Below are positions 1 to 26,511 of a stretch of DNA of 64,000 nt, piece after piece (positions within the stretch are counted from its first letter, which is position 1; each line of letters begins with the position of its first letter). This DNA is from an uncultured delta proteobacterium (lineage in GTDB: Bacteria > Desulfobacterota > Binatia > UBA9968). The stretch covers positions 1 to 64,000 of the forward strand of contig CAVUVW010000002.1 in the NCBI GenBank assembly GCA_963745035.1, given 5' to 3'. The position numbers and the translations under genes are program-made. The notes below the pieces were generated by a model. It saw only the letters and a list, made by a program, of their open reading frames with translations, was not told the DNA's origin and ran no database searches.

Positions 1-73
1 AAAACCGCCAAGCAGATCGGCGTAACCATTCCGCCCAATGTGTTGGCGCGGGCGGACCGGTGTAATCAAATAA
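1..73 (+). CDS. 3' end of an upstream ABC_sub_bind (COG2984) paralogue, cut by the window edge
   Basis: Reads [20 protein letters not shown], the conserved family tail. Confidence 0.8.
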
Positions 74-112
74 CATTTTGGATTTTCGATTAAAACCCAA
101 GAGAACAAACCG

Positions 113-1142
113 ATGAACGCATTCCCTTCGAAGTGTCTTTCCGATAATCCAAAATCGGCAATCCAAAATCGAAAATGGTTGTGGTTTCCGGTGATCGCTT
201 TGGGGATCGTGACCTGTGGGGCTGTGGTCGAAGCACAGCAGTCGAAGAAAGTCCCGCGGTTGGTTCTTGTAAGCCAGGGTCCCGCTGAGCAAACATCACT
301 ACGAATGACAGCCCTACGAGATGGCCTTCGCGAGCTTGGCTGGATTGACGGAAAAAATATCGCAATCGAGCGGCGATCGGCAGAAGGTAAATCTGACCGT
401 GCTAGCGCTATCGCTGATGAGATGGTCCGGCTTGGAGTCGATGTTGTAGTTTGGAGCGGAGGGGTAGAAGCCGCAAAACAGATCAAGACTGTCCCTATTG
501 TTTTTGTTGGCACCTCTGATCCGGTATCGACCGGGCTCGTGAAGAGCCTCGCGCGGCCGGGCGGTAACGTCACCGGTTTGACTTCTCTTGCTCCTGACCT
601 GGCTGGCAAACGGTTGGAGCTGCTCAAAGAAACTATCCCTAAGCTCTCACGAGTAGCATTTTTATTTGACCCAGCGAACACGTCCAATGCCGTGGAAATT
701 GAGCAGTTACGCGGACCAGCTGTCAGCCTGAGAGTAGAGCTTCGTCCCGTAGAAGCGCGAACTCGTGATGACATCGAGCCAGCGTTTGTAACAATGAGCC
801 GCGAGGGCGTCGGCGCGCTCGTCACAGCGTCTGGCGCAATAAACAACACGAATCGCAAACGAATTGTTGAAATAGCTGTTAAGAACCGGCTTCCCGGCGC
901 TTATCATGAAAGCCAGTTTGTCGATGACGGCGGCCTTTTGTCCTATGGACCGAACTTAGCCGGAATGTTTCGGCGCGCGGCATACTTCGTCGATCGGATT
1001 CTGAAAGGAGCCAAGCCAGCTGATCTTCCCGTCGAGCAGCCGACCAAGTTCGAGCTGATGATCAATCTCAAAACGGCAAAGCAGATCGGACTTAGTTATT
1101 CCGCCCAATGTTTTGGCCAGAGCGGATCGAGTAATCAGATGA
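113..1142 (+). CDS. ABC substrate-binding protein, COG2984 family, copy 1 (indel near 1095)
   Basis: Signal peptide ending [42 protein letters not shown] motifs; tail [14 protein letters not shown] lies in another frame. Confidence 0.88.
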
Positions 1143-2192
1143 AAGTAGTCAGGAGTCAGTGGTCAGTAGTCAGGAAAAAAGCAGGAGCGAAATTCATCGC
1201 TGGGGGATTTCTTTTCTGGTTACTGATCACTGTCTTGCTGATTACTGTTCCTCCCGCCACGGCGCAGCAGCCGAAGAAAGTCGCGCGGATTAGGGTATCT
1301 ATCAACAACCGACCCAGCTACTGACTCCGCCCGCGCCGAGGGAATTCGGCTAGCTCTGCGCGAGCTTGGCTACATAGAAGGACAGAACATCGCCATCGAG
1401 TACCGATATGCGGAGGGGAGGCCCGATCGGGAGCCTGGGCTTGCGGCGGAGCTGGTGCGTCTGAAGGTTGATATCATCGTGGTAGCAGCAGGGGACGTGA
1501 CGATCCAGGCGGCCAAGAATGCAACCAAGACGATTCCCATCGTTATGACGGGCCAAGGATCCGATCCTGTTAGGGCAGGCCATGTTGAAAGCCTTGCTCG
1601 TCCCGGCGGCAACGTCACCGGCCTCACAGCCCTTACCAGAGAACTAGGCGGGAAGCGGCTGGAGCTGCTCAAAGAAGCGGTACCCAAACTTGCCCGTGTC
1701 GCGGTTCTCTACGATCCGGCCAATCCGCCCAGTTTACACGAGGTGAAAGAGCTTCTCCCAGCCGACGCGCGTGCGCTAAAGTTGACTATTCAACCTTGGG
1801 AGATACGAGCGGTGGACGACTTCGAGAAGGTCTTTGCTGCGCTAAACAAGCAGCGCCCGGATGGACTCTACGCGTTGGGCGCGGGCGGGTTAATGCGTCC
1901 TAACCGGAAACGGATCGCGGGTTTTGCATTAAAGAGCCGGCTACCGTCGGTGGTGGGCAGCAGAGAATCTGTAGAGGCCGGTGGACTCATGTCCTATCGG
2001 GCGGACGAAACGGACAGTTACCGGCGCGTCGCTATCTACGTGGACAAAATCCTGAAGGGAGCCAAGCCTGCGGATCTTCCCGTCGAGCAGCCGAGCAAGT
2101 TCGAGTTCGTAATCAATCTGAGAACGGCGAAACAGATCGGATTAACCATTCCACCCAATGTTTTGGCCAGAGCCGATAAGGTGATCCGATGA
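1139..2192 (+). CDS. COG2984 SBP copy 2 (indel near 1290)
   Basis: ATGA overlap with copy 1; MKVVRSQWSVV leader; continues into ORF 1455-2192 with all family motifs. Confidence 0.85.
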
Positions 2193-24466: not shown

Positions 24467-24487
24467 AACGATTTTGGATTTTCGATT

Positions 24488-25501
24488 TTGGATTTTCGAT
24501 TCGAAGATACGAAAGAGCGCGGGCTTTGTTCATTCCATTCTGCGTTTTCCTTTTTATGGTTTGCGCTCAGATTGAAGCGCAGCAGCCGGTACAAGATGTC
24601 CCGCGTCGGGTTTGTGTCTGGAACCGGCGATGTTAACAATCCGGGGCCGTTTGTCACCGCCTTCCGGCGCGGCCTAACAGACCTCGGTTATGTCGAGGGG
24701 AAAAACATCCACGTTGAATATCGCTACGTTCAAGGACGCACGGACAGAACCGTTGATTTCTTTAACGAGATCGCACAACTCAGGGTCGATGTCGTCGTTT
24801 CCTCGGAAGCCGCGCTAGTCCGTGCTGCGAAGAAGGCAGCCACCACAATTCCGGTCGTAATGGTAATCAATGGTGACCCGGTCGCGGGCGGTTATATTGA
24901 CAGCCTGGCGCGTCCCGGCGGCAACATCACCGGATTGACCCGGCTCAACCGAGAGTTGAGCGGTAAACGCATCGAGCTACTCAAGGAAGTAAACCCAAAA
25001 ATATCGAAAATCGGAATCCTCTTTGCCGCAAGCTCAGGTAGCCTCGCTAACTCTTTCAAAGAATACCAGTCCGCAGCCCGCGCACAGAAGATGCCGCTCC
25101 AGTCCTTGGAAGTGAGCGCCCCGAACCCGAACCTAGAGCGGGTCTTTCGCGGAGCCGTCCAGCAGGGAGTGAACGCCGTCATCACGGTAAGAGGTACTGT
25201 GCTCAACCGTCACTCAGAAAAAATCTCCGAGTTGCTAATACGAAATCGACTGCCGTCAATGCATGAGAGAAACGAAGACGTCGAAGCGGGCGGCTTGATG
25301 TCCTACGCCTCCAGCGATGCCGAAAGTTTCAAGCGTGCGGCATTCTACGTTGACAAGATTTTAAAGGGCACCAAGCCGGCTGATCTACCAGTCGAGCAGC
25401 CCACGAAGTTCGAGCTGGTGATCAACTTGAAAACAGCCAAGCAGATTGGGCTGACCATTCCTCCCATTGTTTTGGCGCGAGCGGACAGAGTGATTCGATG
25501 A
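24488..25501 (+). CDS. COG2984 SBP copy 21 (5' end probably has indels; start may be GTG 24463)
   Basis: Mature domain intact; signal peptide scrambled. Confidence 0.87.
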   Translation: MDFRFEDTKERGLCSFHSAFSFLWFALRLKRSSRYKMSRVGFVSGTGDVNNPGPFVTAFRRGLTDLGYVEGKNIHVEYRYVQGRTDRTVDFFNEIAQLRVDVVVSSEAALVRAAKKAATTIPVVMVINGDPVAGGYIDSLARPGGNITGLTRLNRELSGKRIELLKEVNPKISKIGILFAASSGSLANSFKEYQSAARAQKMPLQSLEVSAPNPNLERVFRGAVQQGVNAVITVRGTVLNRHSEKISELLIRNRLPSMHERNEDVEAGGLMSYASSDAESFKRAAFYVDKILKGTKPADLPVEQPTKFELVINLKTAKQIGLTIPPIVLARADRVIR

Positions 25502-26511
25502 TGCGATTTTGGATTTTAGATTTTCGATTTTGGATGCGAGGATTTGGGCTATGTTTGTGTCTTGCCCAGTGTGCCCTGCTCTTCGCGCTTTGCTTGCCGG
25601 CGCGGGCACAGCAGCCTAAGTTCGTTAAGATTGGATGGCTCGGCATACGTGGTTCAGGTTCCGGAAGTGAGAGCTTCCGGCAGCAGTTCCGGGAGCTCGG
25701 CTACGTTGACGGCAAAAATACAAAAATCGAGTACCGTTACGCTGAAAATAGGCTCGACCGGCTCCCTTCTCTCGCTGATGAGCTGATCGCCCTCCGGGTT
25801 GATGTTCTCGTGACACCGGCGATGGCTGCCGCCTTTGCCGCCAAGAATGCTACCCAAACAGTCCCGATCGTATTTTTTAATGTATCAGATCCTCTCGCTT
25901 CGGGGCTTGTCGCTAACTTGGCGCGGCCAGGAGGGAACATCACAGGAGTTAGCAACATTGCTGCGGTACTTGCCGGCAAGCGACTGGAGTTACTCAAAGA
26001 AACGATTCCTAAGCTCTCGCGCGTGGCTTTGCTGTGGAACCCCGGAGATCCGAGCTCTGCTCTTCAGTGGAAAGAAAGCCAGGGACCGGCACGACAACTG
26101 GGCCTGCAACTTCATTCGATGGAAGTTGATAGCACGGACAAATACGAAAGCGTGTTCAAAGAAGCAATTAAGGCGCGGGCTGGCGCTGTCGCCGTCACCC
26201 AACACTCCTTGGCAAATTCCAATCAAAAACGGATTGCGGATCTTGCCGCACAGAACCGGTTGCCGGCGATATACGCTCGTCAAGATTTCGCAGAAAGCGG
26301 CGGCTTGATGTCGTACGGCGCCTATCAGTTCGATATGCCGCGGCGCGCCGCTGTTTACGTTGACCGGATTCTCAAAGGCGCCAAACCAGCCGATCTTCCG
26401 GTCGAGCAGCCGGCGAAATTCGAGCTGGTAATCAATCTGAAAGCGGCGAAGCAGATCGGCCTGACGATCCCACCGAATGTGCTGGCGCGGGCGGATCGAG
26501 TGATTCGATGA
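25498..26511 (+). CDS. COG2984 SBP copy 22 (last in array)
   Basis: Intact ORF with family motifs. Confidence 0.92.
   Translation: MMRFWILDFRFWMRGFGLCLCLAQCALLFALCLPARAQQPKFVKIGWLGIRGSGSGSESFRQQFRELGYVDGKNTKIEYRYAENRLDRLPSLADELIALRVDVLVTPAMAAAFAAKNATQTVPIVFFNVSDPLASGLVANLARPGGNITGVSNIAAVLAGKRLELLKETIPKLSRVALLWNPGDPSSALQWKESQGPARQLGLQLHSMEVDSTDKYESVFKEAIKARAGAVAVTQHSLANSNQKRIADLAAQNRLPAIYARQDFAESGGLMSYGAYQFDMPRRAAVYVDRILKGAKPADLPVEQPAKFELVINLKAAKQIGLTIPPNVLARADRVIR

Follow-up and report, generated by a model that had tools for sequence, protein, structure and literature searches.

The stretch of DNA analyzed here (hereinafter the window) comes from a soil bacterium and comprises positions 1 to 64,000 of contig C2, counted from the contig start, in the genome assembly G000 (7.43 Mb in 28 contigs, 92.6 % complete, 5.8 % contamination). 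Its left part is occupied by a tandem array of 22 genes of the PF04392/COG2984 family (ABC_sub_bind), all on the plus strand, within positions 74-26508, as detected by Pfam search and by a hidden Markov model (HMM) that was made from the window's own copies and run over all six frames. Every large plus-strand open reading frame (ORF) in 113-26511 was assigned to PF04392, with scores of 136-186 bits for the full copies, and all 22 copies or pieces exceed the gathering score of 25.9 bits. An earlier note on this DNA, made from the letters alone, had described 22 co-oriented COG2984 paralogues in an array running past the left edge; both statements hold, the first 59 nucleotides being the 3' end of a 23rd copy. 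Because the window starts where contig C2 starts, the array is truncated by the contig end. The array is one part of a lineage-specific multigene family under birth and death, an orphan subfamily of PF04392/COG2984 that encodes secreted periplasmic binding proteins of type I. The features of the array, together with a copy that lies outside it, are as follows:

1-59, plus strand: 3'-terminal 59 nt of a 23rd copy, truncated at the contig start; matches the other copies at their 3' ends
113-1324, plus strand: copy 1, PF04392, leader and domain in one frame, frameshift near 1088
1242-2192, plus strand: copy 2, open domain frame starting at profile position 32, leader read in copy 1's frame
2189-3282, plus strand: copy 3, mid-gene frameshift, parts 2189-2899 and 2740-3282 (Pfam, HMM)
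3279-4295, plus strand: copy 4, intact
4292-5344, plus strand: copy 5, intact
5374-5778, minus strand: interrupting small ORF with an aspartyl-protease-like domain (PF13650/PF13975; Pfam)
5956-6201, plus strand: tail-only copy fragment, profile positions 296-328 (own-copy HMM; 6094-6192 matched as a repeat)
6179-7228, plus strand: copy 6, intact
7426-7761, minus strand: interrupting small ORF, DUF2283
8217-9148, plus strand: copy 7, decayed, pieces across several frames (own-copy HMM; Pfam match at C2:8459-9142)
9231-10214, plus strand: copy 8, intact
10180-11376, plus strand: copy 9, intact, true start probably 3' of the ORF start
11373-12566, plus strand: copy 10, intact
12570-13589, plus strand: copy 11, intact, modelled, reference copy
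13586-14692, plus strand: copy 12, intact
14731-15709, plus strand: copy 13, mid-gene frameshift, parts 14707-15474 and 15404-15709 (Pfam, HMM)
15916-17385, plus strand: copy 14, intact, ORF with a long spurious 5' extension
17382-18428, plus strand: copy 15, intact, tail most divergent
18508-19135, minus strand: interruption by a PemK/MazF-like toxin ORF (18508-18852; Pfam) and an upstream ORF (18830-19135)
19240-20268, plus strand: copy 16, intact
20317-21384, plus strand: copy 17, intact
21381-22388, plus strand: copy 18, intact
22421-23437, plus strand: copy 19, intact
23462-24466, plus strand: copy 20, intact
24488-25501, plus strand: copy 21, domain intact, signal peptide (hydrophobic, ending IEAQQ) in another frame
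25498-26511, plus strand: copy 22, intact, final copy of the array
62569-63955, minus strand: extra intact copy (62569-63582) and tail fragment (63746-63955), outside the array

Sixteen of the 22 copies are intact from the signal peptide through the stop codon and the remaining six are frame-disrupted, a correction to the earlier note, the count itself being right. The leader is an in-frame hydrophobic stretch ending in A-x-A before QQ in 17 of the 18 copies that can be read in a single frame. The frameshift in copy 1 replaces the last ~15 codons and lets the frame continue into the leader of copy 2, which is misframed through one extra base at about 1292. One letter at 1290/1292 is missing from contigs of two independent metagenome runs (in run X1, a single contig with all of the local depth; in run X10, three contigs with 11.7 of 64.9), and removal of the A at 1292 gives a frame that reads RIGYLS, the usual mature start in the family. 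Genes unrelated to the array are split as well, namely those for the large subunit of a molybdopterin oxidoreductase (51740-52843 and 51090-51704) and for a thiamine pyrophosphate (TPP) enzyme in overlapping frames (55950-57770 and 57667-58905, the first part fused to an NMT1-like domain), along with genes at two further loci inspected (L083 and L085); some of the frameshifts in the array may therefore be assembly errors. Copy 7, with three stops within the frame read by the Pfam search, and many fragments of another array on contig C17 (8 full copies among about 70 hits) combine several stops in one frame and are truly decayed; the family therefore shows birth and death.

The copies are old. 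Pairwise identity among the 18 single-frame copies of the window ranges from 41 to 67 % (median 50 %), and the proportion of synonymous differences (pS) is 0.65-0.80 in all 15-codon bins, the C-terminal tail included, that is, saturated throughout, which marks the copies as old paralogues. The proportion of nonsynonymous differences (pN) falls to its minimum of 0.09-0.15 in the last 45 codons, where pS is still 0.65-0.75; pN/pS stays under 1 in all bins, with values of 0.12-0.18 in the tail. The constancy of the tail thus results from selection on the protein, and gene conversion or recent amplification as its source is ruled out by the saturated synonymous differences. The same saturation of dS renders positive selection unmeasurable by comparison of the paralogues. 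A quick maximum-likelihood tree of 98 copies (SH-aLRT support, with the careful search unfinished) includes some local duplicates within the window as well as window copies that are most closely related to copies of other arrays or genomes. A DNA search with the array (window positions 9100-26600) against 30 genomes of the genus returned only single-gene matches, the best at 81 % identity and none longer than ~2 kb, and the best matches of the window copies to the 23 copies of one genome of the genus (G034) are 49-66 % identical, no better than between paralogues; a collinear array of one-to-one orthologues in relatives was accordingly not established.

It appears very improbable that the array consists mostly of decaying, functionless duplicates or is an artefact of assembly. 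The six disrupted copies, the abundance of fragments on C17 and the split genes elsewhere in the assembly speak for such an explanation, but the purifying signal described above persists in all bins despite synonymous saturation, and at least one frameshift, that of copy 2, is missing from contigs of two other runs. Even the most conserved stretches share only 60-85 % DNA identity between copies, a divergence that makes collapsed or inflated repeat assembly unlikely. Furthermore, at least 8000 homologues are present in the protein collection, near-identical pieces of the array were found in contigs of independent soil and rhizosphere runs, and the pocket residues (see below) are kept in orthologue-like sequences from other samples. 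The metagenome contigs of the four runs on window positions 1-16000 are short and of low depth, none spans the array, and many come from other organisms and fall on conserved parts.

Searches of the window with the Pfam profiles PF02653, PF00528 and PF00005 produced no match and none of the window ORFs of at least 150 aa scored as a permease or ATPase, in agreement with the earlier note, which had reported no such gene in the 64 kb. Across the genome, PF04392 yielded 123 Pfam matches and the own-copy HMM 169 hits, 46 of them full-length in a single frame (20 on C2, 12 on C14, 8 on C17, 2 on C15 and one each on C1, C11, C13 and C24); the three large arrays lie at C2:1-26.5 kb, C14:386-426 kb and C17:177-205 kb, the last consisting mainly of fragments. 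To the 46 full copies corresponds one COG4120-type permease, encoded by a single gene at C14:49370-50233 that is among the 12 PF02653 matches of the genome, the others including five Liv-type pairs. Its neighbors encode a 661-aa protein in which the PF04392 domain occurs twice, along with a STAS protein, an ABC ATPase and a SpoIIE phosphatase. The surrounding region (C14:44000-56000) combines the two-domain protein of ~660 aa with STAS, permease and ATPase genes, a GAF-SpoIIE-HATPase_c_2 phosphatase and a xanthine/uracil-type permease. Another two-domain protein of ~660 aa, encoded at C14:806.9-808.9 kb (locus C14:802000-814000), lies beside a mere ATPase remnant, and open frames of 940-1260 aa that contain the PF04392 match two or three times are also found in other parts of the phylum.

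The same lack of partner genes extends to relatives. We collected 80 related loci, chosen solely by likeness to a window copy, from metagenome-assembled genomes (MAGs; labelled Binatia, delta- and betaproteobacteria, Syntrophobacteraceae, Rokubacteria, Pyrinomonadaceae and Udaeobacter) and from cultured Variovorax. As many as 16 co-oriented copies stand within 21 kb at these loci; a homolog of the COG4120-type permease was found in none of the 80, and an ABC ATPase of some kind in four. In three genomes with 23, 43 and 27 copies, likewise, there was no match to the COG4120-type permease and only 2, 10 and 3 matches, respectively, to PF02653, all or nearly all of them Liv-type pairs. These results support the earlier contention that the genes do not form ordinary ABC operons: the copies in the window do not stand in an operon of the TrpXYZ type, nor are they matched in number by COG4120-type permeases elsewhere in the genome. 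The Liv-type permeases near arrays received no positive support as partners, given that two of the three loci inspected (L083 and L084) encode their own Peripla_BP_6 protein; no such gene is among the scanned ORFs of the third (L085).

The array proteins might nevertheless be uptake receptors that share a few carriers encoded elsewhere; the COG4120-type ABC set, permeases of the Liv type (PF02653) and a carrier not yet recognised are the options. We consider this somewhat unlikely, yet a serious rival to the explanation ranked first below. Every characterised PF04392 protein serves an ABC importer, one full set (two-domain PF04392 protein, PF02653 permease and ABC_tran ATPase) is encoded at C14:48-53 kb, and both the window array and the other arrays sit among catabolic genes and other orphan binding proteins. 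That the permease was not found in the 80 loci, in the three genomes with 23-43 copies, one of which is 99 % complete, or in Variovorax paradoxus ISL-3, which has three copies, argues against such sharing, as do the Peripla_BP_6 genes in two of the three Liv-type loci; sharing would also leave unexplained the recurrent neighborhood of a kinase and a cyclase described below.

There is a precedent for orphan binding proteins in large numbers, which have long been puzzling, and for the orphan Bug/TctC proteins of Bordetella a sharing of carriers has been proposed. The Bug/TctC proteins of Bordetella, Cupriavidus and Comamonas likewise form a large, lineage-specific, secreted expansion that far exceeds the membrane components (PMC5812351; PMC9602780), with 76-79 homologues for two membrane sets (PMC5812351), which lends some weight to uptake; in a 2022 survey the reason for this redundancy is still called unknown (PMC9602780). 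The likeness is limited to the behavior of the gene families. Bug/TctC proteins belong to PF03401, have a type II fold and serve tripartite tricarboxylate (TTT) transporters, whereas the array copies match only PF04392, form long co-oriented tandem runs with many decayed copies and are recurrently linked to one kinase family.

The AlphaFold model of copy 11 (12570-13589), which serves as the reference for residue numbering, has a pLDDT of 91.4 and closely resembles three solved members of the family, 3LKV, 3LFT and 6HNI (Foldseek E about 1e-26; phmmer E from 3.5e-30 to 4.5e-26), with TM-scores to 3LKV and 3LFT of 0.77-0.80 when normalised by the model and of 0.90-0.91 when normalised by the solved chains. 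The predicted fold is accordingly the class I periplasmic binding fold of these proteins, which are, respectively, VC_1101, TrpX and CD0873 and belong to aromatic amino acid ABC importers (ligands Phe, Trp and Tyr, respectively; PMC6816091). Besides Pfam family and fold, the array copies share with them export and the framework motifs, those of the C-terminal 50 residues included. They differ in having no partner permease or ATPase genes, in being dozens of tandem paralogues as opposed to one or two operon genes and in the residues that bind the ligand's amino and carboxyl groups, which are replaced in the array, differently from copy to copy.

Variation among the copies is concentrated at the predicted ligand site. 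We transferred the TrpX ligand residues (PMC9382623) and two selectivity positions (PMC6816091) to copy 11 through alignment with the solved members, which gave seven positions (T111, N130, P132, T155, T239, G263 and D279). Across 45 genomic copies, mean entropy at these positions is 3.09 bits, compared to 1.63 bits over all mature positions, a difference not reached in any of 100,000 permutations; in the 18 window copies the respective values are 2.64 and 1.40 bits (p = 0.00013). In the type I binding fold, the residues that follow the core strands lie on the side of the cleft. In the same 45 copies, the 60 positions after core strands (6 after each of 10) have a mean entropy of 2.44 bits, as opposed to 1.37 bits in the 56 positions that precede strands and 1.34 bits in the rest, again unmatched in 20,000 permutations. 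Taken as a whole, the C-terminal lobe varies more (2.05 bits), hence the variation extends beyond the cleft but is clearly focused there. The constant blocks and the variable segments after strand motifs that the earlier note had picked out are visible in the alignment of the 18 copies, and its notion of a constant scaffold with variable pockets is borne out by the entropy at the ligand site and by the concentration, rather than even spread, of variation in loops on the cleft side.

The pockets do not appear to be changing continuously. Among 13 orthologue-like sequences of copy 11 (69-100 % identical, 12 of them metagenomic), four of the seven ligand positions are invariant and the mean entropy is 0.41 bits, compared to 2.59 bits for the 18 paralogues at the same positions; each paralogue lineage keeps its own stable pocket, which suggests fixed, distinct specificities and argues against ongoing hypervariation or an arms race. 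Consequently, the idea of an expandable library fits insofar as intact, frameshifted and decayed copies are mixed in the manner of birth and death, and does not extend to the pockets, which are stable within orthologue-like groups. In TrpX, the amino acid backbone is bound by T108, A127, T129, D152 and N233 (PMC9382623). None of the 18 copies retains this full set: the threonine equivalent to T129 is kept in none of them, and the aspartate and the asparagine in one each. With these residues replaced, the 'tryptophan/tyrosine transport' names under which such proteins are found in databases are unlikely to be right.

The conserved tail, through which the proteins had been proposed to dock to a shared partner, does not by its constancy alone support that interpretation. 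It is no extra module for docking but lies inside the PF04392 profile (matches reach position 292-293 of 293) and aligns residue by residue with the C-termini of the transporter-linked 3LKV and 3LFT, which carry the same motif. Its constancy is thus a property of the fold throughout the family and in itself no pointer to a new partner. The conservation of scaffold and tail with transporter-linked homologues would fit a retained permease-docking surface, as expected of uptake receptors.

A candidate for a shared partner emerged from gene neighborhoods outside the window. In all three Variovorax loci, a single orphan copy adjoins the gene for a ~830-aa sensor histidine kinase (dCache_1, HAMP, GAF, HisKA and HATPase_c domains), followed by a gene in which a class III nucleotide cyclase is joined to a receiver domain; on the opposite side, the loci differ in gene content. 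When the Variovorax kinase was used to search G000, the only match that included the periplasmic part was at C14:414024-415688 (E 2e-133), also the single match to that part at E <= 1e-30. The corresponding gene (C14:413985-416913) starts about 110 bp past C14:412832-413875, the last copy in the main run of the C14 array, and the next 12 kb encode the remainder of the kinase in a second frame, a receiver-cyclase, one further PF04392 copy and a cyclic-nucleotide-binding transporter. The kinase has a PF02743 dCache_1 domain at residues 56-290, followed by HAMP, with hydrophobic stretches on both sides, that is, an extracytoplasmic dCache-type domain between two membrane helices. With the kinase gene adjoining another array, a kinase serving the window array would have to act in trans.

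Among the 80 related loci, orthologs of the periplasmic part of the kinase (E <= 1e-40) were found in 13, namely 3 of the 29 loci under 6 kb, 1 of 16 between 6 and 12 kb and 9 of 35 of at least 12 kb, and the receiver-cyclase (E <= 1e-90) in seven; where such a kinase locus includes a full copy, as 12 of the 13 do, 0-883 bp separate the kinase from the closest one. The kinase lies beside or within arrays in G015, G014/G034 (apparently the same genome, 99 % complete and of the genus to which the window belongs), G023, G013, G011 and G002. Of 31 relatives (G005 among those counted), 20 have both binding protein and kinase, two the binding protein alone, none the kinase alone and nine neither, and the split between presence and absence cuts through a single genus (G023 versus G019 in genus g2). 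These genomes are kin, hence not independent, and the tallies of adjacency and co-occurrence are to be read as a description, not as statistics. In a phylum-wide draw of 200 other genomes, the kinase was found in none and PF04392 in 63, with at most 16 first-look candidates per genome compared to 142 in G000, which indicates that the kinase tracks the expansion and not the family as such. In the tree of 98 copies, kinase-adjacent copies are scattered (11 changes, 13 rows), and seven window copies share a clade (SH-aLRT 98 in the quick tree) with the Variovorax copies and two other kinase-adjacent ones. Of the shared partner postulated in the earlier note, therefore, a candidate exists in the dCache kinase by adjacency and co-occurrence, its gene being located outside the window.

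Binding proteins that stimulate dCache-type kinases are documented, the examples including LuxP-LuxQ, HptA-HptS, CBP-ChiS, TorT-TorS and BctC-BctE (PMC8050422). In such LuxPQ-type systems, a binding-protein gene without a transporter lies beside that of a kinase with a dCache-type periplasmic domain (PMC8050422). The window itself lacks this arrangement, which recurs at the C14 array, at 13 of the 80 loci, at each of the three Variovorax loci and in relatives. The differences are that LuxPQ-type systems pair one binding protein with each kinase, whereas the orphan PF04392 proteins amount to tens of paralogues per one to four kinases, that the output here is a receiver-cyclase and that PF04392 docking is a prediction. 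A count of the Pfam name of PF04392 in the main text of PMC8050422, a review from 2021, gave zero, the supplementary files lying outside this count.

Given that a transporter-less binding-protein gene beside a dCache-type kinase is a known signature of sensing, the explanation that we rank as most likely, with somewhat less than even confidence, is that the orphan subfamily comprises ligand-specific co-receptors which feed the dCache kinase, the window array being part of this repertoire and acting in trans. Judging from gene context, ligand-loaded copies would dock on the periplasmic dCache domain of the sensor histidine kinase in the manner of LuxP-LuxQ and HptA-HptS, the kinase would then phosphorylate the response regulator fused to the class III nucleotide cyclase, and many small molecules would in this way be funnelled into a single cyclic-nucleotide signal. 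On a broader scale, and more tentatively, one can envisage a bacterial analogue of an olfactory-type receptor repertoire, distributed over soil-dwelling lineages from several phyla, in which dozens of secreted proteins with fixed, different pockets, subject to tandem birth and decay, might converge on one or a few dCache kinases and, by way of a receiver-cyclase, on a single cyclic-nucleotide signal.

Several observations weigh against the co-receptor explanation. The window holds no kinase, cyclase or signalling gene, and its array is linked to the kinase via family membership only. The kinase of G000 itself is encoded in two overlapping frames (1986-3833 and 3616-4929 of locus L088, which is C14:412000-430000), and it may be broken or misassembled. 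No close ortholog of the kinase appeared at E <= 1e-30 in two genomes with the binding proteins, G008 and the 98 % complete G007, which has 45 matches; in G007, a more distant dCache kinase lies directly beside a copy. To our knowledge, the service of 40 or more binding proteins by one to four kinases has no precedent. All characterised PF04392 members, moreover, are transporter components, the orphans might share the one complete COG4120-type ABC set of the genome, and the co-occurrence table overstates the support because the relatives are not independent. Complex prediction for copy 11 (residues 36-339) with the kinase (residues 52-305) returned a score of 0.00, which is no answer and bears neither way.

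Finally, the adjacency could equally mean two-component control of the binding-protein genes. The dCache kinase would then sense its ligand directly and the pathway would control the genes next to it, with the proteins acting on their own as periplasmic scavengers or buffers, or together with other partners, a scheme that we regard as quite unlikely. Adjacency and co-occurrence are equally compatible with it, as they give no direction, and dCache domains usually bind small ligands directly (PMC8050422). The simple repeats in the spacers between copies, which are strongly enriched there, could be regulatory sites. The response regulator, however, carries a cyclase and no DNA-binding domain, so that control of transcription would need a further factor; most copies, the entire window array included, are far from the kinase; and a transporter-less binding-protein gene beside a kinase is, in the systems known, the mark of a co-receptor (PMC8050422).

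The spacer repeats lie directly past the stop codon and consist of an 8-nt unit, ATTTT-C/G-GA, in both orientations and of GTCAG-type runs (for example, 138-177, 10215-10247, 11378-11415, 20269-20308, 24469-24501 and 25504-25552, with further simple-repeat sites at 1140-1176, 19240-19277 and 21381-21418). Counted over the whole genome, 34 of the 76 sites of the first motif and 8 of the 9 sites of the second fall within 400 bp of a copy, a territory that makes up 1.6 % of the genome. Promoter-like and terminator-like sites in 9000-27000 are not above shuffled expectation and no Rfam family reached its gathering score in the window. The 101-aa ORF at 18830-19135, which has no Pfam match, probably forms a type II toxin-antitoxin pair with the PemK/MazF-like ORF.

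Beyond the array, the window also abounds in transporter-less binding proteins from other families (28398-50679), including SBP_bac_8 genes (28398-29516, 32100-33206 and 49507-50679), NMT1-type genes (30824-32092, 33365-34384, 35974-36963, 39662-40666 and 40688-41704) and a weakly TctC-like ORF (42601-43701). They sit among amidohydrolases, a glyoxalase and TPP enzymes, and similar mixtures flank other arrays. Two transposase genes are also present, one of the IS110 family (34411-35622, plus strand) and one of the DDE type (DUF4372 and DDE_Tnp_1; 60893-62098, minus strand).

Some further genes of G000 touch on signalling. Beside the kinase and cyclase, locus L088 encodes an 886-aa protein (13941-16601) in which a cyclic-nucleotide-binding domain is fused to a carrier of the Na/sulfate or citrate type, a possible output of the cyclase that was not found beside the kinase in the other loci, and the locus carries a second, fragmented kinase as well. 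At C14:515370-519150 (L086:5371-9150), a 1259-aa histidine kinase contains an N-terminal part with weak similarity to PF04392 (residues 141-323, E 1.4e-6) followed by several PAS domains and adjoins a LuxR-type response regulator; it would be a fused binding-protein-like sensor. Two regions, C11:202541-223213 and C14:112729-123242, contain tandem GAF matches to the kinase query over ~21 and ~10 kb, some with stops, and represent giant multi-GAF genes or arrays.

Orphan expansions of binding proteins, exemplified by TctC/Bug (PMC5812351; PMC9602780), and kinases that depend on binding proteins are both already known. In the literature covered, which did not extend to supplementary files, we found no description of tandem arrays of orphan PF04392 genes, of paralogue-specific pockets or of the link to a dCache kinase and cyclase, and terms for binding proteins do not occur in the Binatota genome paper, the supplementary files of which might list such genes. 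The present observations add a second family, unrelated to Bug/TctC, that behaves likewise and brings with it a testable candidate partner. The kinase and the cyclase accompany the orphan PF04392 family across phyla, cultivable Variovorax included. Whether the proteins sense or transport, the names 'ABC transporter substrate-binding protein' and 'tryptophan/tyrosine transport' are probably wrong for thousands of entries in databases. Should the proteins instead feed a carrier, the missing carrier would itself be worth finding. If many-to-one sensing is true, it would constitute a new architecture of bacterial chemosensing, and the arrays would be a naturally occurring collection of proteins that bind small molecules, from soil bacteria that are abundant and uncultured.

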